Positions 2,141-13,501 of a stretch of 64,000 nt of DNA are shown here, piece after piece. The stretch spans positions 920,974-984,973 of the forward strand of contig JAVLKG010000003.1 in the NCBI GenBank assembly GCA_032128875.1, written 5' to 3'. Source of the DNA: Candidatus Melainabacteria bacterium 17Bon1m. Lineage in GTDB: Bacteria > Cyanobacteriota > Vampirovibrionia > Obscuribacterales > Obscuribacteraceae. A program made the translations under genes and the position numbers. The notes under the pieces were generated by a model, which searched no databases, was not told the origin of the DNA, and saw only the letters and a program-made list of their open reading frames with translations. Numbering within the stretch: the stretch's first letter is position 1; every line of letters starts with the position of its first letter.

Positions 2141-2809
2141 CTAGGCAGATTCTTTGAGGTAAGGTGCCAATTGGGCTTGAATCTTCACGCGGGCGCGAGA
2201 GATTCTTGATTTCACCGTTCCCAATTCGGTGTTGGTGATGACGGCGATTTCTTCATAGGACAAACCATCAACTTCGCGAAGAAGGACGGACTGTCTGAAC
2301 TGTTGTGGGATTTTTTCCAGAGCTTCGCCGAGCGCTTGAACCAATTCCATTCTTTGGAATGCTTTGTCTGGTTGAGTTGTCGTGTCGGCAATGGCGCGTT
2401 CTGCATTCTTTGTGCCATCTTCGCTTTCCACTGGTTCATCAAGCGAGATAACGTCTTGGTTGCGAACTTTTCGTCTCAGTTCGTCATAGTAGAGGTTGGT
2501 GACTATCTGTCCGAGCCAGGCTTTAAAAGCGGCTGGGCTTCTCAGTTGATCGATGGATTTCCACATCCTGATATATGCTTCTTGCACGATATCTTGCGTG
2601 TCCGTCCATTCGGGAGCGCGCTTGCGGATCATCGCAACAATGGTTGTTTTATGGCGCTTCAAAAGTTGGTCAATTGCACCTGCTCTGTGTTGCTGGCAGG
2701 CGACGATAAGTTCGGCGTCGGTCATATCGCTGAAATTCTTCTGCGATGCAACTACCGAAAGGTGATTGACTTTCTTCGCGCTTGGAAGGAATTTCACGGT
2801 ATTACTCAT
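2141..2809 (-). CDS. ECF RNA polymerase sigma-70 factor (SigG/RpoE-like)
   Basis: DIVQEAYIRMW, FKAWL region 2; GLSYEEIA...GTVKSRISRAR region 4; ATG at 2809 with GGAGAG upstream. Confidence 0.9.
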   Translation of the reverse strand: MSNTVKFLPSAKKVNHLSVVASQKNFSDMTDAELIVACQQHRAGAIDQLLKRHKTTIVAMIRKRAPEWTDTQDIVQEAYIRMWKSIDQLRSPAAFKAWLGQIVTNLYYDELRRKVRNQDVISLDEPVESEDGTKNAERAIADTTTQPDKAFQRMELVQALGEALEKIPQQFRQSVLLREVDGLSYEEIAVITNTELGTVKSRISRARVKIQAQLAPYLKESA

Positions 2810-2940
2810 TTTTTTCTCTCCACGTCTTAGGACGGTAAATAGCAGCAAAATACCCGCTCCGACGGCATGTGTGCCGTTGGTCGGTTTTTAAAGGTGGGAG
2901 GCGTTTCGTATTCGCCTTACCCTTTCATTCTGCCACCGCC

Positions 2941-2966: not shown

Positions 2967-3175
2967 TGCAGTGAAAAGAGGTTTGATATCGCTTGTCTGA
3001 TGCTAGAAAACCAGGTAAGGTTCGCCGTTTTATAGATTGTTACGCTCATTTTCGGGAAGCGATATAGGGTTTACTGGTAGTGCTCTTTGTTGAACATGCA
3101 ATTGTGTAAGATCATGCCTCACTTTTTATTGGAAAGAGCGAAACGCTGATGAAAGGCTGCTTTAACAGAAATGAC

Positions 3176-3199
3176 AAAAAAGGCGGAGAGATCCGCCTT
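3176..3199 (-). terminator. Intrinsic terminator
   Basis: Minus strand AAGGCGGA-TCTC-TCCGCCTTTTTT. Confidence 0.7.
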
Positions 3200-3487
3200 C
3201 TCTGTTTTGTCTCACGTTCCGTTCGGCATAACCCTGCGAGAAGCTAGGCCGATTCTCTGAAAAACTTTTGATTACTTCTAATTTTGCCATTGGCATATGG
3301 AAGCAACAACAATGGTTTGCCCTAGTGAAGTGTCTCTTGATTTCCCGTGTTGCAAAATCTCTTATCCGTCAGAATGCAAGTGTTTTCTGTCGATGTTACG
3401 TAAGATTTCGGGCTGCTGTATCGGGTTTTCCCGTAGGAATGGGCCCTGTACTAGAGTCTGATTTTACTGTGAAGTCTGCCACCAATT

Positions 3488-4213
3488 TCAGCGTGTTCGC
3501 AAGCGAGATTTACTTTGAGATCTATATAGATCCCTGGAGATAAATGTATCGTGCCCATCATCACTGCGGAAAACCTCGACAAGCAACTCACCCGGAGAGC
3601 CCGTTTGCTCAAGCCGTTTCAGTTGAGCCTTTTCACAACTCTGGGCCATTTTCTGCGACCCAAGAAATTCGACTTTCAATTGTGACGCATTAGTGAGAGC
3701 CCTTATCTGAATGGGCGTGTCCGTCGTGTTCTCAAACTTAAGGTCTGCTCTGCCATACCAGACCGTTGCATCGAAGCCTGGTGGCACCGTCTGCATGGTG
3801 CGCAAATGAGGGACTCTCTCCACGATCTTTAATCCCGCGGTAAGTGCAGATTGATATAGGCACGACGATAAAAGACAAATGCCACCACCCAGAGTATTAG
3901 GCGTTTCCCCACCTAAATAAGATGGAGCCGGCTGGTAACCTTGTTTTCCGGTACGTGGGCCAACTTTACCGTTGAAGGAGAAAGTTTCTCCCGGTTTCAC
4001 AATCGCACCATCAAGCCTCTGTGCTGCTTGATACAAGTTGTTCTTTTGCTCGTATGAAAGCGCCCGCAAACTTACGACGCGTGAAACTATTACTTTTGAA
4101 AATGGGTATACAGCGAAATTTGTCGCTACCAATGTGCCCGTCAACAGAATCAAGAAGATGATTTTGAAATCCAGTAGAGTGGACACTGCATTTTTCACGG
4201 TTGAGAGTTTCAT
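3488..4213 (-). CDS. VanW family protein with N-terminal TM segment
   Basis: PGETFSFN, GGGICLLSSCLY, ERVPH, GFDATV, DLKFEN motifs. Confidence 0.88.
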   Translation of the reverse strand: MKLSTVKNAVSTLLDFKIIFLILLTGTLVATNFAVYPFSKVIVSRVVSLRALSYEQKNNLYQAAQRLDGAIVKPGETFSFNGKVGPRTGKQGYQPAPSYLGGETPNTLGGGICLLSSCLYQSALTAGLKIVERVPHLRTMQTVPPGFDATVWYGRADLKFENTTDTPIQIRALTNASQLKVEFLGSQKMAQSCEKAQLKRLEQTGSPGELLVEVFRSDDGHDTFISRDLYRSQSKSRLRTR

Positions 4214-4217
4214 ATTC

Positions 4218-7200
4218 CTACTCGGTTATCTTGAGCACATCAAGCATGGAATACCCGCGGACACTCTTGGTGTACATTCCTTCGAATGTGACCGGGTTCA
4301 ACTGCACGTCACCAGGCAATTCCATGCGCAACAGCGTGTGGAATTCTGATTTGCCTGCCGGCATTTCTGTGCCGAAGAATACGATCCGGTCATCGAGTAC
4401 ATCCTGGTGAGTCCACCATGGTTGCCCCCAGTCCCCTTCAATAACGGTGCCACCACTTTCGCCGTCCATCTCTTCCGATTTGTGATTTTCGACAACTTCG
4501 GCACCTGAAGGCAGAGGCGACTCGACGATGATGTATGGCACATGTACCGGTGTTTCTATGTAAACCTTCATAAGCACAGTCTCGCCGGACTTAATCTGTC
4601 CGCCTGCAATTGGTACCGTGCGGAATCGAAGAGTTCCGGTGCTAGCTTCTTTTACTGTTTGTAAGCGGAAGAATTTGCGTGTAACTTTCAGCCCTTTTGG
4701 AAGTGCTTCAGCCTCTATATTTTCGCCCGGTAAGAGCTTTCTGAAATAGGTTTGCAAAAGTGTGTAATAGAGCTTTCCTGCTCCCTCTTTTTTGAGCGTT
4801 ATGGTGTCTTTGAGATCGGCAGGCAATGAGACTTTGCTTTCCGCTGCGTACCGACTCTTAGGGTCAAACTTCAGTTGCGCGAACACACTGTCTTTCATCA
4901 GAGCATCCAGTGAGAAGTTTGTCTCTTTGCTGCTGCGATTGAGAATGTCATCTTTGAGAAGCACTAAGAAAACCTCAGCTGTGGTTTTTGTGTTGTCCCA
5001 ACCAGATTTGCCTCTCTGCATCATGAGCCAGCGCTTGATTGCTTCAACCTTTTGCTCATTTTTTGGTTCCATCGTCAGCACCGCGCGCAGTGCCAGAGCT
5101 GTCGACTCCACCCCTGTGAAACGGTATGAGTACTCAAGCATGTGCGGTTTAAAGGTCGGACCCATCAGCTTTTGGGCGAGCTGCAGTGTATGGTCCCAAT
5201 CGATGGTCTCACCACTTTCATTGGCAAGCTCAAGCAATCTTTGATAAAACACATTCGCTTGTTTGTCTTGCTTCGCATTTTTGAGCGTTATCGTCAGATA
5301 CGTGAGCGCTTCAGGTGTTAATGAGTTGACCTCTTTCTCGAAGCTCGCGCAGATTTTCGCATCTGGTTTTTGCCCAGTCAGGCTGAGAGCGTAGAGAGCT
5401 CTTGCCAGATCGATGCGTTTTTCTCTGTAGTCATAGGCTTCGATCTTGATTTTGGGATCGTGCAATTGTTTGTTCAATTCGACGACGTTCTTGCTCAACC
5501 ATTGGCGACCCGTATCAATCATCTCGCGCGGGACGCTGTAGTCGCAATCCTTGAGCATGAGCAAGCCTTCGACCACATACGATGTCAGATACATGTTGCT
5601 CTCGTCGTCGACCCACCATCCCCAACCTCCATCGCTGTGGTGGTGGTCGGTGAGCTTCTTCATTCCCATTTTGAAAATCTCGTCAAATTTCTTTTTCTGT
5701 GCCGCAGTTACCGGCATGTCGAGGTTTTTCTGCAATTGGAAGGCGACGATTGAAGGCACGAGCCGGCTTAGGGTTTGCTCTGTGCACCCGTATGGATAGT
5801 CGATCAAGGAATCGAAGCTGCCGATTACAGGGCCCATCGAAGAGCTTGCCACAGTTAAATTGACTTTGCCTCTGTCTGCTCCTTTCACCGGAGGTTGTAT
5901 CCGCAAATCAACTTGCTGCGAATCTTGAGTCAATACGCCTGTCTTCGCGACAAATGCCGGCACTCCAAGTGGACGTACAGGCAATTTCACTTCCATCGCG
6001 TCTGCGCGTGTGTCGCCTATTGCTTTGACACTAATCGCCACTTGCCCAGCGGACAAAACGTTGACCGGCCAAATATGGCGATACGCCTTTTCCGGCGCGA
6101 CCTTGAATGTCGCAGTGAGCGGCGCATCTGTACTCAGTTGTCGCGTCATGTTGACTGACAATTTGATGTTCTGCTCTTTTTCAGAATAGTTGTGCACGAT
6201 GCATGTGACCTGACTGTGATCTCCTTCGCTGAAGAATCTAGGCAGTGCCAAACGGACGAGCACGTCTTGAGTCGAGAGAACCTTATTGATGCATGAGCCG
6301 ACTTCGGTCGTCATCGAAACTCCACGTACGGTCGCGCGCCAAGTCGTGAGATTGTCCGGCAGCTTGACTTTCGCTGTAGCGATGCCGTCTTTGTCGGTAA
6401 TCAATTCAGGTGCCCAGAAGGCTGTGTCCTTGAAGTCTTTTCTCACGCGCGGCTCGATTTTGTCAGGACCTCCTGAGTAAGTTTCCGGGAACGAGCACAT
6501 CACCTGCACGAGATTCTCTCGCCTGGCGTAAAAGAATTTGCGAATGTCTTGCGCAAGCTCTGCTCTAATTGAATAGATGCTTTCGTCCACGACACCAAGT
6601 GAAAGCTCAGTGTTGGCGGCGGGAGTATGATCTGCTTTCTCTGCCTTAATTGTATATGTCACCGTTTCGCCTGGTTGATAACGAGGTTTGTCGGTTGCAA
6701 CTTGCACCGTCAAGAAATTGTTCGCCGGCGAAACTTTGATCATCTTGTTCTGCGTGTAGAACTGATGTTTTTTAGTTACGAGTACTGCGTTGACGTACAC
6801 ATTGGGTGCGTACTTTTCCTCAATCGGAATTTCAATCAACTGCGCTGTCGATGAAAGCGGTACTACATGCCGTTTATAGATGGTTGTCCCTTCAACGGTT
6901 ATTACCGCCTGTGCGCCTTCGCTTCCGGTGACAGGTCCGCTAAACATCAAGCGAGCCGTGTCTCCTGGTTTGTAAATTGCTTTATCGAAGCGCAGTGAGA
7001 CTGGTTCGCTCTGCGCGTTGTTGCCGCTTAAAATGTAAGGATAGTCAGGGCTGGCGATCCATATGCTTGACTGGTCACCGACGAGGTTGCCCGCACCATC
7101 CGAGGCACGTGCGGAAATGTAGTAGGTGTCCGTAGCGTACTGGTCTTTAACCGGGAATATGACTTTGCCTTTTCCTTGAGCATCAGTCACAACTTTCGCT

Positions 7201-9245
7201 TCGCCAAGTACTTGTTCATCTCTATAAGTGTACGTCGAAGCGTCCCATGGATAGCGGCTGAGGCGCATTGTAATCGCTTGATTGGCGACCGGCTTGCCGT
7301 CGTAATCAATCGCTGTCACGGTCGCATTCAAACTGTCGCCGACTTTGGCGACATAAGAATCTGGCGTGACGAACAAACAGAAATTCCCCGCAGAAACTTT
7401 TGCAGTGCCGGAACTCACCACAGTCATTCGGCTGATGTCCGTAACTTCTGCTTCGATTTTGTAATTACGATCTCTGTATTCACTGGAATTAGGATGCTCG
7501 CCGAGTGGCTCAGCTTTCTTTGTTTGAACTTCGACTATTGCCTCACCGTTGTCGTCGGTCGTGACAGTGCCTTCCTCGACATAGTCCCCACCGTACTCTC
7601 CGTAGTCTTCGTCTGAATCCCAATCATCGAAGAAAGCAAAATATTCAGGTCTGTCTTGCAGTCTGTATCGACTAGACCAATCTGTCGATGAATAGATTGA
7701 ATACTTCACCTGCGCATTGGCAACCGGTCCACCAAAGAAATATGTAGCGTGGATTTTGGCTTTCACCTTCTGTCCGGCGACATATCGTGCTTCAAGTGGT
7801 TTGACTTCAACCTGATATTCCGGCTTTCTGTATTGCGCGACTTCGAAATTTTCGTACGCTACCGTGCCGTCAGGATAGGTGATATTGATGGAATAGGCGC
7901 CCGTCTTGCCGTCTTGTGGAATTGAGTACAGTCCGTGGAATGTTCCGTGATCTGATGTTTTGATTTTTCCGTTGAACAACTCTTCGCTGTTCGGATCTTC
8001 TATATGAACATTCAGTTCTATATTTTTGCCGGGGTTTTTGAATCCGTCCGGCGAAATTCCTCTGGCTATGCCTTTGAAATTGACCGTCTGCCCAAGCCGA
8101 TAGACTGGGCGATCCGTATAAAAATAAGTCTGCATCTTGTCGGACGAAGAGCGCCAATAGTTCATAGCACCGTAAGCGATATTGCTTCCTGACACTCCCA
8201 TGACTAAGGTGTTGAAACTTGATTGAGTGTTGGTTGATTTTGGCAGTGCACATTCGACAAAACCATCGTTCGCCGTCACGCCGCTTGCCAGTGCATTCTT
8301 GGGGGTGTCCTTGATAAGGCTTTCGTAGATGTTTATCTGTGCGCCGCTTACTGGTTTTAGCGTATTGAGATCAATGGCGCGCACGAGAGTTTTTTCCGGC
8401 GCTTGCCAAACTACAAGACCGATATCAGTGACGCTAAACCAGTGAATAGCGTGCGTGTGTTTCGTCGAATTGACGCCTTGCGCTTCACCATAAACTACAT
8501 AATCGCCCTGGGGAAGCGGCTTGTCGAGCTGAAATTCTGCACGTGATGAATCATTTTCATCTTGCTGGAGATCGCGGCTGAGAACGGCAACCGGAGTGTC
8601 TTTTGGAAATGGGATCGTGAATTTGTTCTGATTGCTTCTGTAAAGCTCCAGGCTGTTGCTCAGTTCATAGCCCCATTTGTCGAAGGACTTCTCTTTCGCT
8701 AGTTTGAGAATGTCTGTTTTGTAGACCTTAACTTTGACGTTTTTCGAGGCGGTAGCATTTGCCCAGAATCGAGGCGCCTCCTTGCTCGTGAATGTGCGCA
8801 TGTTCGAGGCAATGGAAAGGCTCGGTTCAATCAATGAAAGGTGAGTGCTGTCATGCACAACAGTATTCTTTCCGTCTTCGATAAAAACACCGTTAACGTA
8901 TTCGGTGGCATATCCGGTGGCACGGAGCTTTATTTGATACTCCCCAGCCGGTAACTGATCGATACGATATGTGCCGTCTTGGTTTATCCAAACACCGCGC
9001 TCGACTTGCGGGCCGCCACGCGGCCCATATGCCATCGCGTAAACTTTGTTGCCTTTCAGGTCGTAGCTTGAAATTCCAAACCCTCTCTCTTCGAGATCGA
9101 TCTGTCCTGAAACCGACCCGACTGGATGTTCGAGATAAGCACTGAGCAGTGCCAAGAACAGGAGCTGTACGACAACCAGATTCCATGCCGTAAGTATGCT
9201 GCGAGGCTGGTTTTGGATGACTTTGGTATTAATTATGGAAGACAT
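4218..9245 (-). CDS. Bacterial alpha-2-macroglobulin (MG2/A2M) with thioester motif
   Basis: 1675 aa; YTDRPVYRLGQ, YRKPEY, VRKDFKDTAFW, LPDNLTTWR, YPYGCTEQ (CxEQ), DGGWGWW; N-terminal hydrophobic segment. Confidence 0.95.
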   Translation of the reverse strand: MSSIINTKVIQNQPRSILTAWNLVVVQLLFLALLSAYLEHPVGSVSGQIDLEERGFGISSYDLKGNKVYAMAYGPRGGPQVERGVWINQDGTYRIDQLPAGEYQIKLRATGYATEYVNGVFIEDGKNTVVHDSTHLSLIEPSLSIASNMRTFTSKEAPRFWANATASKNVKVKVYKTDILKLAKEKSFDKWGYELSNSLELYRSNQNKFTIPFPKDTPVAVLSRDLQQDENDSSRAEFQLDKPLPQGDYVVYGEAQGVNSTKHTHAIHWFSVTDIGLVVWQAPEKTLVRAIDLNTLKPVSGAQINIYESLIKDTPKNALASGVTANDGFVECALPKSTNTQSSFNTLVMGVSGSNIAYGAMNYWRSSSDKMQTYFYTDRPVYRLGQTVNFKGIARGISPDGFKNPGKNIELNVHIEDPNSEELFNGKIKTSDHGTFHGLYSIPQDGKTGAYSINITYPDGTVAYENFEVAQYRKPEYQVEVKPLEARYVAGQKVKAKIHATYFFGGPVANAQVKYSIYSSTDWSSRYRLQDRPEYFAFFDDWDSDEDYGEYGGDYVEEGTVTTDDNGEAIVEVQTKKAEPLGEHPNSSEYRDRNYKIEAEVTDISRMTVVSSGTAKVSAGNFCLFVTPDSYVAKVGDSLNATVTAIDYDGKPVANQAITMRLSRYPWDASTYTYRDEQVLGEAKVVTDAQGKGKVIFPVKDQYATDTYYISARASDGAGNLVGDQSSIWIASPDYPYILSGNNAQSEPVSLRFDKAIYKPGDTARLMFSGPVTGSEGAQAVITVEGTTIYKRHVVPLSSTAQLIEIPIEEKYAPNVYVNAVLVTKKHQFYTQNKMIKVSPANNFLTVQVATDKPRYQPGETVTYTIKAEKADHTPAANTELSLGVVDESIYSIRAELAQDIRKFFYARRENLVQVMCSFPETYSGGPDKIEPRVRKDFKDTAFWAPELITDKDGIATAKVKLPDNLTTWRATVRGVSMTTEVGSCINKVLSTQDVLVRLALPRFFSEGDHSQVTCIVHNYSEKEQNIKLSVNMTRQLSTDAPLTATFKVAPEKAYRHIWPVNVLSAGQVAISVKAIGDTRADAMEVKLPVRPLGVPAFVAKTGVLTQDSQQVDLRIQPPVKGADRGKVNLTVASSSMGPVIGSFDSLIDYPYGCTEQTLSRLVPSIVAFQLQKNLDMPVTAAQKKKFDEIFKMGMKKLTDHHHSDGGWGWWVDDESNMYLTSYVVEGLLMLKDCDYSVPREMIDTGRQWLSKNVVELNKQLHDPKIKIEAYDYREKRIDLARALYALSLTGQKPDAKICASFEKEVNSLTPEALTYLTITLKNAKQDKQANVFYQRLLELANESGETIDWDHTLQLAQKLMGPTFKPHMLEYSYRFTGVESTALALRAVLTMEPKNEQKVEAIKRWLMMQRGKSGWDNTKTTAEVFLVLLKDDILNRSSKETNFSLDALMKDSVFAQLKFDPKSRYAAESKVSLPADLKDTITLKKEGAGKLYYTLLQTYFRKLLPGENIEAEALPKGLKVTRKFFRLQTVKEASTGTLRFRTVPIAGGQIKSGETVLMKVYIETPVHVPYIIVESPLPSGAEVVENHKSEEMDGESGGTVIEGDWGQPWWTHQDVLDDRIVFFGTEMPAGKSEFHTLLRMELPGDVQLNPVTFEGMYTKSVRGYSMLDVLKITE

Positions 9246-9855
9246 CGGCGGTAATCCTGTACATTTGGCAACGAGAGTTGACGGGAATTCCAGCTTTCAA
9301 TTTGCATTGCACCAGTTGGTAGTGTGCATCGACGCATTCGCCCGGCAGAAGTACTGCCGCACGCCCTGCCTGTCTAACAAAGAGTCCGTGTTTTAAAGGA
9401 TTGATTGCGCGAATACTTTCAATTGGATCAACTGATTTGATGACTGTAACCTGTGCTTTGAGCTTGCCGATTTCTCCGCGCTTCACCTGGCTGAATCTGT
9501 ATTCTTTTGTGAGCGCGGCCTCGGTCGTAAAAACTGTTGAGCTGATGAGATCTGCATGTTCCGGTGTGATTGAGCCCCAGCATGCTCGAGTCTTTCCATC
9601 TTTAGACAATGTGACGAAAAGACCTCTCGGTTCTCCGGTCACTTTTCCTTTGGAAAGTTCCTCGGTTAATTGCGTCAGCGATTTTCGTTTACCATCCGGA
9701 AGAAAATGATTTTCAACTGTTCGCATAGCAATCTCATTCAGATGCAGCGATTTCACTCGCGCATCCGTATCAGGTTGCGCGTTCGCCAGTGCAAGTGGCG
9801 ACGCGGCAAAAACTATGCTGCTGTAAGCAGCAATATAGGCGACAAGACGCTTCAT
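9229..9855 (-). CDS. AMMECR1-domain protein with predicted signal peptide
   Basis: GLFVTL...TRACWG (cf. LRGCIG), EYRF (cf. DPRF), HGL...LLP, KAG; N-terminus MKRLVAYIAAYSSIVFAASPLALANA. Confidence 0.8.
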   Translation of the reverse strand: MKRLVAYIAAYSSIVFAASPLALANAQPDTDARVKSLHLNEIAMRTVENHFLPDGKRKSLTQLTEELSKGKVTGEPRGLFVTLSKDGKTRACWGSITPEHADLISSTVFTTEAALTKEYRFSQVKRGEIGKLKAQVTVIKSVDPIESIRAINPLKHGLFVRQAGRAAVLLPGECVDAHYQLVQCKLKAGIPVNSRCQMYRITADVFHN

Positions 9856-10041
9856 AAACCTAAGAGTTTACCCTGAGTCGCTCGAAGAAATTCACACATG
9901 GAATTTCAACAGACAACTTTCTAACAACCATTATCACCAGAGCCTGTAAACTTATACAGGCGCACAGGTTGCAAAGCTGTGAAATGATTGTGATGGCTTT
10001 GTAAAACGCCAACAGGCGCGCGTTTGTAAGGGTTTCAGCGT

Positions 10042-10968
10042 TTGACTTCCGACTCAGACAGCAGCAATAACTCCATTGGGCGGCGCGACTTTTTGAAGTC
10101 GATGTTTGGGCTGGGCGGGCTTTTGGAAGCTTCAGAAGCGTCTGCAAAGCCAGCACCCGGGCGCACTATCTTCTTCTGGACCGACTTGAAGACCGGGCAG
10201 GTAGGCTTCCCTACCGGCTTTATGGTCGAGGCTGGCCTGCCTGGCTCGGTTATGAAGATTGTTTCTTCAGCGGCACTCATTGAAGAACGCTTGGTCAACC
10301 CTAACGACACCGTTGACTGCATGGGGCACGCCACGATTCAAGGTCGAAAAATCAATTGTTTAGCCGCGCATGGAAAAGTAGACGCGGTGCACGCCATTGC
10401 CCAATCGTGCAATGTTTATTTTGCGACAGTTTCAAAACAAATGAGTCAGGCCTTGCTCTTTGAGTATGCCAAGAAATTTGGATTTGATTCTGCGGTCGGG
10501 TCTGTGAAGAGCGGGCTGTTTCCAAAGCCTGAGAAATCTTCAGCCTGGCCTTATGTTGTTGGTTTGAGTCCTAACCTGCATCCCAACGGATTGCAGCTTC
10601 TGCGCATGAGTGCCCTTGTCGCAAATCGCGGTGACGTTCCGTATCTTCATAGCGCTGAAGAAAACGCTCAAGGTAAGCCTCGATCGAAAGTGGAGCTTTC
10701 AGATCTCACCTGGGGACGTTTGCAGCAAGGCATGGAGCTGGCTGTACGCGAAGGGACTGCCAAAAAATTAGACCCTAACCACAAGTTGCATATTGCCGCA
10801 AAAACCGGCACGGCACCGCACGGCAACAAGTTTCAGTCTTGGGTGACAGGGTATTTCCCGTGCGAGGCACCTCGTCACGCATTTTGCCTGGGCGCGACCA
10901 GCGGCACCAGCTCAGAGGTTGCTGTACCGAAAGCCAAAGAGTTTTTGTTCGCAACTGAATGGCCGTAG
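10042..10968 (+). CDS. Penicillin-binding transpeptidase-domain protein with Tat-like signal
   Basis: PGSVMK (SxxK), QSCN (SxN), AKTGT (KTG); RRDFLK and ASA at the N-terminus. Confidence 0.85.
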   Translation: MTSDSDSSNNSIGRRDFLKSMFGLGGLLEASEASAKPAPGRTIFFWTDLKTGQVGFPTGFMVEAGLPGSVMKIVSSAALIEERLVNPNDTVDCMGHATIQGRKINCLAAHGKVDAVHAIAQSCNVYFATVSKQMSQALLFEYAKKFGFDSAVGSVKSGLFPKPEKSSAWPYVVGLSPNLHPNGLQLLRMSALVANRGDVPYLHSAEENAQGKPRSKVELSDLTWGRLQQGMELAVREGTAKKLDPNHKLHIAAKTGTAPHGNKFQSWVTGYFPCEAPRHAFCLGATSGTSSEVAVPKAKEFLFATEWP

Positions 10969-12200
10969 GCCTATCTATATATAAGAACGCATTTTGCTGG
11001 GGAAAAACGCTTTTGAATCGCGAGAAGTTGAAAGTGCGGTTTTTTTTGTTTTTTCATTTGTCGATTGCAATAGCTTTGCTTTTGTTCTCAAACACGATTG
11101 CTCTGGCGAACCCGCCAGGCATTTATGTCACTCTCTTTCAATCGCGCCCTCGCATTGACACGCTATATTTGCGCGGTCCATTCGTTGTATCCAATCCGAT
11201 TCACGCTGTCTTTCATGAAGGACTCTTTGAATGCGTGAGCGATGGAGGAGTGATTAGATTCGCACAGATAATTGGTCGAAAAAGAAAACCCATTTTGCGT
11301 GCACCGCATTTGGTGATATCAGATCGAGCTCGCTCAACAATCGAGATTGGTCCGGACCTTGAGCACATGCGCAAATACTATGGGCAAATGACAATCAGCC
11401 GGCGCTCCGCCGGACCACGCGATAGACAAGGCGGCGGACTGAATGTAGTAAATTTGATCGACAGCTTTAATTATGTGGCATCAGTTGTCGGTGGCGAAAC
11501 TACGGCAGATTTCGGCAAAGAAGCTCTCAAAGCCCAGGCAGTGCTCGTCTATACGCGCCTCTCGCCAAAAGGACGACATCCGGCGTTGAATGATACGACC
11601 GACGAGATGGTCTACCTCGGCGCCCAGCATGAACGCGCTGATGTCATAGATGCGGTAATCGATGTTGATCGCCGGAGACTGATGTTCAATGATCGACCCG
11701 CTCAAGCCTTTTTCCATGCCTGTTGCGCCGGGCGCACCAGCAAGGGCAGTGACATCTTTGGAGAAAATGCCAAAGCCTTGGTGTATTTGCAGTCCGTTCC
11801 TTGTAACTATTGCAAGGCGTCTCCACTTTATGGCACGACGACAAAGCAGATTCCAGCAACCATATTCAACCGTGAAATAGCTGAAGGGGGGCCGAATGTG
11901 CTCAAAGTCGACCAAGCAAAGCGTATTGTCATTGCCGACATTCGCAAGGGCGGTAAAACTGAGACTGTGAGTGGCTACCAGTTGTGGCTGCGTTTGGGAC
12001 AGCGTCTGGGCTGGGACAAGGTGCCTGGTACTCGCTATCAGATAAGGAAGACGGGTTCTGCTTACACGATAAAATCAAGTGGTGGCGGGCACGGAGTCGG
12101 TCTTTGTCAGTGGGGCGCACAAGGGCTGGCGAAGCAAAATAAGACCTATACTGAGATTTTGCAGTATTACTTTCCTGGCGCTACCGTAGAGAAACGCTGA
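10959..12200 (+). CDS. SpoIID/LytB-domain lytic transglycosylase
   Basis: YVASVVGGE...EALKAQAV and GHGVGLCQWGA...ILQYYFPG; start uncertain. Confidence 0.9.
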   Translation: MAVGLSIYKNAFCWGKTLLNREKLKVRFFLFFHLSIAIALLLFSNTIALANPPGIYVTLFQSRPRIDTLYLRGPFVVSNPIHAVFHEGLFECVSDGGVIRFAQIIGRKRKPILRAPHLVISDRARSTIEIGPDLEHMRKYYGQMTISRRSAGPRDRQGGGLNVVNLIDSFNYVASVVGGETTADFGKEALKAQAVLVYTRLSPKGRHPALNDTTDEMVYLGAQHERADVIDAVIDVDRRRLMFNDRPAQAFFHACCAGRTSKGSDIFGENAKALVYLQSVPCNYCKASPLYGTTTKQIPATIFNREIAEGGPNVLKVDQAKRIVIADIRKGGKTETVSGYQLWLRLGQRLGWDKVPGTRYQIRKTGSAYTIKSSGGGHGVGLCQWGAQGLAKQNKTYTEILQYYFPGATVEKR

Positions 12201-12322: not shown

Positions 12323-13501
12323 ATGCAGTCAAGAGTTCGCAAGCTCGCATCCCACAAGGCAGATCAGTTTCAAGAGTCAGTCATCAGAGAGATGTCACGG
12401 CTTGCAGCCCGGTACAAGGCAACAAATTTGGCGCAAGGTTTGCCCGATTTCCCTTGTCCTGAAGAACTCAAAATAGCTGCTAAAGATGCACTGTTCGCGG
12501 ACGTCAATCAGTATGCGATTACCTGGGGTGATAAGCCCTTGCGCGACGCGCTTGCCGAAAAACATTTGAAAACAGCCGGACAGAAAGTAGATCCCGAAAC
12601 TCAGATTACTGTTGCTTGCGGCGCCACAGAAGCCATGGTCGCAACAATGTTGGCGCTTGTGGATGCTGATGATGAAGTGATTGTATTCGAGCCCTTCTAC
12701 GAAAATTACGGACCTGATGCCATCTTATGTGGTGGCAAGCCTCGTTATGTATCGATGCATCCGCCTGATTGGACATTCGATGTGAAAGAGCTCGAGAAGG
12801 CGTTTAACGACAAGACTCGCGCCATCATCGTCAATACTCCTCACAATCCGACAGGCAAAGTTTTTAGCCGGGAAGAAATGACCGAAATAGCACGCCTTTG
12901 CCAGAAGTGGGGCGTTCTTTGCTTGACTGATGAGATTTACGAGCACATTCTTTATGACGGTCACGAGCATGTCGCGATGGCTTCCTTGCCGGGCATGGAA
13001 GACCTGACCGTGACAATAAACAGTTTATCGAAGACCTATAGTGTCACTGGATGGCGCGTGGGTTGGGCGATTGCACCTGCTGAATTGACTTTGCCAATTC
13101 GCAAAGTTCACGACTTCCTTACCGTCGGCTCACCCGCACCATTGCAAAGGGCTGCCGTTACTGCAATTAACATGGGCCAGAAGTATTACGATGACCTTGC
13201 CGCGGAATACAAAGATAGACGCGCGTACATGCTTGAAACGCTCGATATGTGCGGCATCAAGTACTACAAACCGCAAGGCGCCTATTATGTCTTCAGCGAT
13301 ATCAGCGAATGGGGATACGGCACCGACATGCAGTTTACCGAGTACCTGGTTAAGGAGATCGGTGTGGCTGTGGTGCCTGGCGCTAGCTTCTTTGGACCGT
13401 CTGAGTTGGCGCGTAATTATGTTCGCTTCTGCTTCAGCCGTCGAGAAGAGACTCTCGTTGCCGCTCGCGAAAAACTTTTGAAATTGAAGAAGAAGGCGTA
13501 A
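12323..13501 (+). CDS. PLP-dependent aminotransferase class I/II (YbdL/DapC-like)
   Basis: NLAQGLPDF, NTPHNPTG, DEIY, SLSKTYSVTGWRVG. Confidence 0.92.
   Translation: MQSRVRKLASHKADQFQESVIREMSRLAARYKATNLAQGLPDFPCPEELKIAAKDALFADVNQYAITWGDKPLRDALAEKHLKTAGQKVDPETQITVACGATEAMVATMLALVDADDEVIVFEPFYENYGPDAILCGGKPRYVSMHPPDWTFDVKELEKAFNDKTRAIIVNTPHNPTGKVFSREEMTEIARLCQKWGVLCLTDEIYEHILYDGHEHVAMASLPGMEDLTVTINSLSKTYSVTGWRVGWAIAPAELTLPIRKVHDFLTVGSPAPLQRAAVTAINMGQKYYDDLAAEYKDRRAYMLETLDMCGIKYYKPQGAYYVFSDISEWGYGTDMQFTEYLVKEIGVAVVPGASFFGPSELARNYVRFCFSRREETLVAAREKLLKLKKKA

Follow-up and report, generated by a model that had tools for sequence, protein, structure and literature searches.

Two types of operon have been described for the alpha-2-macroglobulins (A2Ms) of bacteria, one that pairs A2M with penicillin-binding protein (PBP) 1c and another, the six-gene mag operon; A2M and PBP1c have been proposed to act in the periplasm as a defence-plus-repair pair, and the Mag partners bind and stabilise the type II A2M (PMC5764988, in excerpt). 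VanW domains, which were given LD-transpeptidase activity in 2024, form the catalytic domains of a second family of LD-transpeptidases built on a Cys-His-Asp triad (PMC11348318; review PMC12729407; both in excerpt). Here, we describe a five-gene cassette that encodes AMMECR1, a thioester A2M, VanW, a PBP consisting of a transpeptidase domain only and a SpoIID/LytB-domain protein, found in a 64,000-nucleotide stretch of DNA (hereafter, the window) from Candidatus Melainabacteria bacterium 17Bon1m (assembly GCA_032128875.1, contig JAVLKG010000003.1, positions 920,974 to 984,973). The host is a non-photosynthetic relative of cyanobacteria in the Obscuribacterales with a genome of 7.55 Mb in 35 contigs. 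On balance, we lean towards reading the cassette as a periplasmic "trap-and-mend" system and as a third genomic type of bacterial A2M system.

The five open reading frames (ORFs) of the listing occupy window positions 3488-12200 in two divergent arms. The minus-strand arm comprises AMMECR1 (9229-9855, 208 aa), A2M (4218-9245, 1675 aa) and VanW (3488-4213, 241 aa), with a 17-bp overlap between the first two genes (9229-9245) and a gap of 4 bp between the last two (4214-4217); the plus-strand arm comprises the PBP (10042-10968, 308 aa, TTG start) and SpoIID (10959-12200, 413 aa), and a spacer of 186 bp (9856-10041) lies between the arms. An earlier note on this DNA had proposed a divergent five-gene module with this same overlap, gap and spacer, which match the ORF coordinates, and Pfam and NCBIfam matches back every gene assignment; its statement that PBP and SpoIID abut is right about their adjacency but not about the exact junction, where the listed ORFs overlap by 10 bp. 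The export or anchor signals that it saw at all five N-termini were likewise recovered, with Kyte-Doolittle means (19 residues) of 1.7-2.1 in the N-terminal segments of VanW, A2M, AMMECR1 and SpoIID, versus ~0.5 in two cytoplasmic neighbours, and a twin-arginine (Tat) motif in the PBP. From these hydrophobic N-termini and the twin-arginine motif we infer that all five proteins are exported.

Evidence for the cassette as a unit comes from its conservation. Loci around relatives of AMMECR1 were scanned by tblastn and then with profiles built from the family's own orthologues, 121 of them being distinct after nine duplicates were removed, and a strong match to the exported AMMECR1 was present in 23 of 24 genomes of the host's family. 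A2M directly followed AMMECR1 in 102 of the 112 loci with at least 1.5 kb downstream, and VanW was present in every one of the 81 loci that had a complete A2M and at least 1.5 kb beyond it, in 77 of them within 1 kb. Upstream, the PBP was found in 83 of 90 loci with at least 2.5 kb of sequence (73 divergent, 10 co-directional) and SpoIID in 61 of 75 loci with at least 9 kb (51 adjoining the PBP), which makes SpoIID, by these counts, the loosest member of the cassette. Of the 121 loci, 59 had the complete set of five genes inside the fetched stretch, in a divergent arrangement in 51, co-directional in 7 and permuted in 1.

Searching 301 genomes of the phylum with a profile, and scanning contigs a second time, gave access to more distant loci (25-40% identity), and outside the class Vampirovibrionia the genes run in one direction, in the order PBP-SpoIID-AMMECR1-A2M-VanW. 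This co-directional form is represented by loci from Sericytochromatia (L147, L151, L152, L157) and by a Saganbacteria metagenome-assembled genome (MAG; L153) in which the five genes fit within 7.7 kb, while a further MAG (L158) carries four co-directional genes before its contig ends, and another (L162) has the permuted order A2M-VanW-PBP-SpoIID-AMMECR1. Because the distant loci carry their genes in one direction, the divergent layout of the window is best viewed as a rearrangement characteristic of the Vampirovibrionia, among them Vampirovibrio chlorellavorus (L138, L139). The divergent architecture claimed in the earlier note therefore holds for that class but not as the general form, and the two arms whose linkage it had proposed do occur together in other genomes, as a single co-directional operon outside Vampirovibrionia. 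The AMMECR1-A2M-VanW triad is found without nearby PBP or SpoIID in other Sericytochromatia loci, in MAGs labelled Armatimonadota, Myxococcales and Omnitrophota and in the MAG "bacterium STL-ARS1", and the triad also occurs in MAGs labelled Bacillota/Clostridia. Evolutionarily, one could argue that the five genes are neighbours by descent only and share no function, as most loci come from one class in which synteny may simply have been inherited. We consider this extremely improbable, however, given that the genes stay linked at 25-35% identity, despite inversion and permutation of their order, and in MAGs assigned by label to other phyla, and that two of the gene pairs occur fused (see below). 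Co-conservation in this gene-neighbourhood survey reaches far beyond close relatives, and neither of the outcomes that the earlier note had named as refuting it, a restriction to close relatives or unlinked arms, was observed. Some contigs bearing unrelated labels (Flavobacterium psychrophilum, Planktothrix, Bryobacterales, Proteobacteria, Actinobacteria) carry cassette proteins ~45-55% identical to those of the window, an identity resembling that of Obscuribacterales-labelled contigs, and these mismatched labels are probably errors of binning or labelling.

A complementary scan with the A2M alignment, limited to the best 80 of at least 573 relatives, gave 77 new loci, to which the following counts refer. 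AMMECR1 was present in 17 of them, six of which are not of the Vampirovibrionia type, and VanW in two on contigs cut upstream; wherever a VanW locus had upstream room, AMMECR1 was also there (15/15). A different arrangement, PBP and/or SpoIID without AMMECR1 or VanW, was seen in 24 loci, all with acidobacterial labels, where the order is DUF1175, A2M, an ORF with no Pfam match, and then PBP and SpoIID (L168, L177, L201, L205, L213, L222), with DUF1175 upstream of A2M in all four loci whose upstream ORF was submitted to Pfam. The ORF directly after the acidobacterial A2M has a largely hydrophobic sequence and is read as a multi-pass membrane protein. Its identity as a divergent VanW was considered and rejected, as it is largely hydrophobic and matches neither Pfam nor the VanW profile. 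PBP and SpoIID of these loci form one open frame in 11 cases (with Pfam confirmation for L168 and L177) and separate, adjacent genes in another 11, the fused state being that of Pyrinomonadaceae/Blastocatellia-labelled loci and the adjacent state that of Terriglobia-labelled ones. In E. coli, YfaT belongs to DUF1175 (its NlpC/P60 match is weak and below the cut-off) and YfaQ matches the Pfam family SpoIID at 27 bits against a cut-off of 23, and for this reason the acidobacterial form bridges the yfa/mag theme and the cassette of the window. What the earlier note had given as known, the pairing of A2M with PbpC and a SpoIID-like gene in yfa-type loci, is in line with this YfaQ match and with PMC5764988, in excerpt.

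The second fusion joins A2M to VanW. In a Clostridia-labelled MAG (L188:7653-12899, plus strand), bMG10 is followed by VanW in the same frame, with no stop and no membrane helix between them, and a database search returned 14 clusters of such fusions (P0002-P0015) of 1666-1747 aa that combine PF04294 with A2M domains, are 58-100% identical in the searched region and come, where the source is named, mostly from Firmicutes/Bacillota. These natural A2M-VanW and PBP-SpoIID fusions argue that the members of each pair act together.

Structurally, the A2M of the cassette matches the Pfam domains MG2 (3.1e-26), A2M_BRD (1.2e-20), A2M (2.7e-20), TED_complement (4.7e-21) and, at its C-terminus, bMG10 (8.5e-21), and its TED domain carries the thioester motif GCTEQ at residues 1153-1157 (CTEQ at 1154-1157), in agreement with the kept CxEQ of the earlier note. 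CxEQ is retained in all 54 orthologue rows that extend over the site (rows here and below are aligned orthologues of each of the five proteins, with some places counted twice) and in 75 of the 77 relatives from the A2M scan. The protein thus has the CxEQ in TED and the bait-region, MG and bMG10 domains of a type I A2M, but neither the lipobox anchor nor an adjacent pbpC with a glycosyltransferase domain; instead, a transmembrane anchor spans residues 16-35, and the first 60 residues contain no cysteine and hence no lipobox, the feature by which ECAM is anchored. We predict from these features that it is a type I-like thioester trap capable of covalent protease capture. The host genome holds a second, distant A2M-like open frame (G000:C1:474997-478212, 1573 aa) with ~25% identity over parts. 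In a midpoint-rooted FastTree of 64 A2Ms whose support values were not inspected, the AMMECR1/VanW-linked A2Ms occupy several deep branches and the acidobacterial group is nested inside, which tentatively hints that the AMMECR1-A2M-VanW triad is the older state.

VanW matches PF04294 (1.3e-44, 151 bits against a cut-off of 27) as its sole Pfam domain, with no PG_binding_4, bears an N-terminal membrane anchor at residues 18-36 and is the only VanW match in the host genome. Its C113, H136 and D148, invariant in 90 of 90 orthologue rows, would correspond to the published LD-transpeptidase triad, and we predict LD-transpeptidase activity for it. At 69.7 bits it stays far below the cut-off of 365 of vanW-gen, the NCBIfam model for glycopeptide-resistance VanW, and a PDB sequence search with it returned one chance-level match only. 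The earlier note had counted AMMECR1 and VanW as two poorly understood domains, a label that still suits AMMECR1, whose function is unassigned, but no longer VanW, now placed as the catalytic domain of the second LD-transpeptidase family by PMC11348318, which in excerpt also reports that LD-transpeptidases require tetrapeptide donors and that three of seven tested VanW proteins from outside C. difficile were active.

Given this predicted chemistry, VanW might alternatively serve as a protein-to-peptidoglycan ligase that fixes A2M, its protease adducts or AMMECR1 to the wall, and not as an enzyme of cross-link repair. LD-transpeptidases that attach proteins to peptidoglycan have been described (PMC12729407; PMC12274547; both in excerpt), and some of the YkuD type do so for Lpp or OutB. 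A tethering role would also fit the A2M-VanW fusions, which place the enzyme at the A2M C-terminus, and the presence of VanW with A2M in 81/81 loci. Attachment of the Lpp type, though, uses a C-terminal Lys, and A2M ends in ...KITE and AMMECR1 in ...VFHN, so that neither has the C-terminal Lys/Arg of such substrates; nor is any VanW enzyme known to attach proteins. We regard tethering as unlikely and retain cross-link repair as the preferred reading for VanW.

The PBP gives a Pfam match to Transpeptidase (PF00905, 1.6e-26, 93.7 bits) with no glycosyltransferase domain and carries the motifs S69-V-M-K72, S122-C-N124 and K254-T-G, of which S69 and K72 are kept in 99/99 rows, S122 in 99/99, N124 in 84/99 and KTG in 97/97. 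In NCBIfam and the PDB it best matches the transpeptidase halves of class B PBPs of the PBP2/FtsI type, but it aligns only to PBP2 residues ~300-570 (pbp2_mrdA, 102 bits against a cut-off of 455), and the N-terminal anchor and pedestal/dimerisation domain of class B PBPs are absent from this 308-aa protein. Class D beta-lactamases have the motif SxV, and this identity was ruled out for the PBP on account of its SxN and of its best matches, which are PBP2/FtsI transpeptidase domains. The twin-arginine motif, RRDFLK, precedes a weakly hydrophobic stretch and recurs under a strict pattern in 76 of 79 distinct Vampirovibrionia-type PBPs, the other three being RR variants; the Tat signal is specific to the class, and the distant PBPs examined carry ordinary hydrophobic leaders. 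SpoIID matches its Pfam family at 2.9e-11 and TIGR02669 (SpoIID_LytB) at 134.6 bits (cut-off 83.3), stays below the sporulation equivalog TIGR02870 (114.3 versus 234.75 bits) and has an N-terminal signal or anchor at residues 26-44. It aligns to the structures 5i1t and 4rwr, with E180 falling on the conserved GE motif of 5i1t; this glutamate, which we take to be the catalytic residue, is kept in 84 of 84 rows.

With four of its five proteins being wall enzymes or wall-associated, the cassette could also be a routine unit of peptidoglycan growth or remodelling, in which A2M keeps in check peptidases or endopeptidases of the cell's own periplasm and not foreign ones. Its distribution within the family of the window would agree with this, as the cassette is chromosomal and syntenic and, with its VanW as marker, present in 27 of 30 sampled genomes, and so would the outcome of PADLOC, which matched none of the five proteins. 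In five other families of Vampirovibrionia, cassette-type VanW was present in 2/2, 5/9, 5/14, 1/1 and 1/17 genomes, but it was found in none of the 74 sampled genomes of three small-genome families of the class (0/30, 0/32 and 0/12), and because it was not found there the cassette would seem dispensable for the growth of related cells. The host genome, moreover, has three further SpoIID-domain genes, and thioester A2Ms are suicide traps, ill suited to reversible regulation. A housekeeping role of this kind accordingly strikes us as improbable when set beside trap-and-mend.

AMMECR1 matches its Pfam family at 4.1e-26 (91.9 bits against a cut-off of 25), falls below the cut-off of TIGR04335 for AmmeMemoRadiSam system protein A (71.3 versus 99 bits) and yields a structure model (pLDDT 86) that resembles archaeal AMMECR1 (PDB 1vaj) with a TM of 0.68-0.70. 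The RGChG and DxR-aromatic motifs proposed as the active site of the family (PMC2034487, in excerpt) are intact as R90-A-C92-W-G94 and E118-Y-R120 (RACWG, EYRF), with R90 kept in 129 of 130 rows and C92 and G94 in all 130. A putative signal peptide covers ~residues 1-25, and a hydrophobic leader was seen on every examined AMMECR1 from cassette, triad or PBP-SpoIID-linked loci; related stand-alone forms of ~180 aa (L114-L118) have none, and a separate AMMECR1 match elsewhere in the host genome lies inside an open frame of ~533 aa.

Its place directly in front of A2M in 102/112 loci, the 17-bp overlap in the window and its invariant exposed cysteine would all suit AMMECR1 as a dedicated maturation or locking factor of A2M, one that protects or resets the thioester, for example, with VanW, PBP and SpoIID only loosely associated. 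Exported AMMECR1 occurs, however, without A2M in L160, L140, L142-L144 and L104. In L160 it stands beside PBP-SpoIID, whereas L140, L142, L144 and L148 (Thermostichales or Synechococcus labels) and L104 have a lone AMMECR1 bearing both a hydrophobic leader and a proline-rich linker; in L142 and L104 its gene is flanked by those for a PALP-family enzyme and a pantothenate kinase and has no A2M within 10 kb. VanW, for its part, shows linkage as tight as that of AMMECR1 and, in Bacillota MAGs, forms fusions with A2M, and thioesters of the A2M family form without helpers, all of which makes a dedicated maturation factor decidedly unlikely in our view. An enzyme with a shared envelope substrate would account for the distribution of AMMECR1 no less well than a dedicated partner of A2M would. 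A more specific form of this idea, which we offer only as a speculation with rather low odds, is that exported AMMECR1 is a periplasmic thiol enzyme working with VanW and the A2M thioester; it might, for instance, carry or edit the acyl group of a stem peptide or exchange with the thioester. If true, this would provide the first tractable biochemical context for AMMECR1, whose chemistry is unexplained in all domains of life, and would establish a third class of bacterial A2M system, probably an ancient one, with the AMMECR1-A2M-VanW triad as its core.

Functionally, the order of events that we infer for trap-and-mend begins with A2M held on the inner membrane by its N-terminal helix, where an endopeptidase entering the periplasm would cut the bait region and be captured by the CTEQ thioester. 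VanW, as a membrane-anchored Cys-His-Asp LD-transpeptidase, would then re-link stem peptides through 3-3 bonds, possibly using tetrapeptides, the type of product left by cut cross-links, while the Tat-exported, transpeptidase-only PBP would make 4-3 cross-links and SpoIID, as a lytic transglycosylase of the SpoIID/LytB type, would open or trim glycan strands. Exported AMMECR1, a constant partner of the A2M-VanW pair with its predicted cysteine active site kept, may be a thiol enzyme on the same substrate or else an adaptor. LD-transpeptidases serve wall repair in E. coli, and, since they use tetrapeptide donors, they could re-stitch a cut wall without new precursor. On this scheme, which extends the idea published for A2M and PBP1c (PMC5764988, in excerpt), the cassette would have the wall-repair or defence function that the earlier note had put forward as a possibility. 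Any physical contact among the proteins is likewise conjectural; a complex prediction with A2M 1040-1675, VanW 50-235 and AMMECR1 35-208, in which AMMECR1 was the scored partner, gave a score of 0.00 (mark 0.32), a result neutral as to binding.

Several points weigh against trap-and-mend. In the A2M scan, 34 of the 77 thioester A2M loci had none of the four partners, although several of the contigs are too short to tell, and SpoIID is often displaced by 1-8 kb or lacking within 10 kb. Exported AMMECR1 is, judging by its neighbourhoods, not strictly an A2M factor, because it occurs alone in Thermostichales-labelled genomes and with PBP-SpoIID but no A2M in L160, and its family has no known chemistry. 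The PG_binding_4 domains seen in characterised VanW enzymes are missing from the cassette VanW, and among the VanW proteins assayed in PMC11348318, in excerpt, some had no LD-transpeptidase activity. As to sampling, the loci were found with AMMECR1 or A2M as probe, related genomes are non-independent samples, and many MAG labels are clearly wrong, so that counts of phyla rest on submitters' names and sequence divergence.

Regarding regulation, an alignment of 10 genus-level spacers revealed a block of ~95 nt (roughly 9917-10010) that is almost invariant and contains an 18-nt palindrome at 9943-9960. Each of two conserved spacer motifs, this palindrome and a stretch of 28 nt, occurs once in the host genome. 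The motifs were present in 12 of 12 loci of the genus; a partial match turned up in one additional genus, and the remaining loci searched had none at up to three mismatches. This block is probably a shared, locus-specific operator or promoter, and the spacer gave no match to Rfam and no promoter-like site in a sigma-70 consensus scan. At the other end of the minus-strand arm, ~280 bp after VanW, a terminator-like hairpin (3174-3205, minus strand) with 14 pairs and then a T run matches the terminator consensus and is the probable end of that operon, in a scan that returned 13 such sites against 11.3 expected in shuffles. Four RNA-labelled runs of one sample contained the whole stretch on contigs of 35-50 kb at flat depth, with DNA or the source sample as their possible origin, so that these runs bear on neither transcription nor operon structure.

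Among the flanking genes, one for an ECF-type sigma factor (2141-2848, minus strand) lies on the VanW strand, ~640 bp downstream of that gene, and, in the tblastn surveys, adjoins the cassette only in close, genus-level relatives. A class I/II aminotransferase gene (12323-13501, plus strand) follows SpoIID and occurs within a few kb in many Obscuribacterales loci at 68-99% identity, a proximity that may be mere conserved synteny. In a Sericytochromatia locus, a PAS histidine kinase gene (L100:2762-4552, minus strand) begins at the end of VanW, and its co-transcription with the cassette is possible.

A link between A2M and wall enzymes is a known theme, and what is new here is the composition of the cassette and its breadth. 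Our literature search yielded no paper linking a bacterial A2M with AMMECR1, SpoIID or VanW: macroglobulin together with AMMECR1 returned human papers only, macroglobulin with SpoIID only a thylakoid-lumen proteome of cyanobacteria, known by its listing, and the VanW search was noisy, with its matches inspected in part and those inspected unrelated. The cassette would constitute a third type of A2M operon, in little-studied lineages that include non-photosynthetic cyanobacterial relatives, Saganbacteria and MAGs labelled Armatimonadota, Omnitrophota and Bacillota, and it joins three topics, namely A2M as trap plus repair, VanW LD-transpeptidases outside Clostridioides, and AMMECR1. The natural A2M-VanW fusions supply a direct, testable hypothesis for the role of VanW outside Clostridioides, AMMECR1, which is universally distributed, is met here beyond the cytoplasm and apart from the radical SAM and Memo proteins that usually accompany it, and the five proteins are small or modular enough for expression and assay.

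Compared with the described systems, individual components of the cassette are familiar and their combination is not. AMMECR1 shares its fold and the RGChG and DxR-aromatic motifs with AmmeMemoRadiSam protein A and archaeal AMMECR1 (PDB 1vaj, 1zq7, 1wsc), but has a signal peptide, belongs to an envelope operon and has neither Memo nor a radical SAM protein as its neighbour. VanW resembles Ldt4 and Ldt5 of Clostridioides difficile in its catalytic domain with conserved Cys, His and Asp and in its membrane anchor, and differs from them in lacking PG_binding_4 and G5 domains, in having A2M as a partner, in its presumably diderm, non-Bacillota host and in an activity that is so far predicted. The acidobacterial thioester A2M loci likewise link A2M to a transpeptidase-only PBP and SpoIID, but in them a DUF1175 gene precedes A2M and a gene read as encoding a multi-pass membrane protein follows it, where the cassette has AMMECR1 and VanW. 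As in the type II systems (P. aeruginosa magABCDEF; E. coli yfaA-T-S-Q-P), A2M stands in a multi-gene operon with partners that resemble wall enzymes; type II A2Ms, however, have no thioester, mag and yfa contain no AMMECR1, VanW or PBP, and none of DUF1175, DUF2138, DUF2135 and DUF2300 was found by Pfam in the five cassette proteins. With the type I systems (E. coli yfhM-pbpC; Salmonella Sa-A2M), the cassette has in common the thioester CxEQ, bait region, bMG10, inner-membrane location and adjacent PBP gene, and the different architecture that the earlier note had claimed is confirmed in that the cassette departs from both described operon types (PMC5764988, in excerpt). In contrast to type I, the A2M is anchored by a transmembrane helix and not through a lipobox, the PBP is a class B-like, transpeptidase-only protein of 308 aa with a Tat signal and no glycosyltransferase domain, and AMMECR1, VanW and SpoIID join the pair as extra conserved partners.

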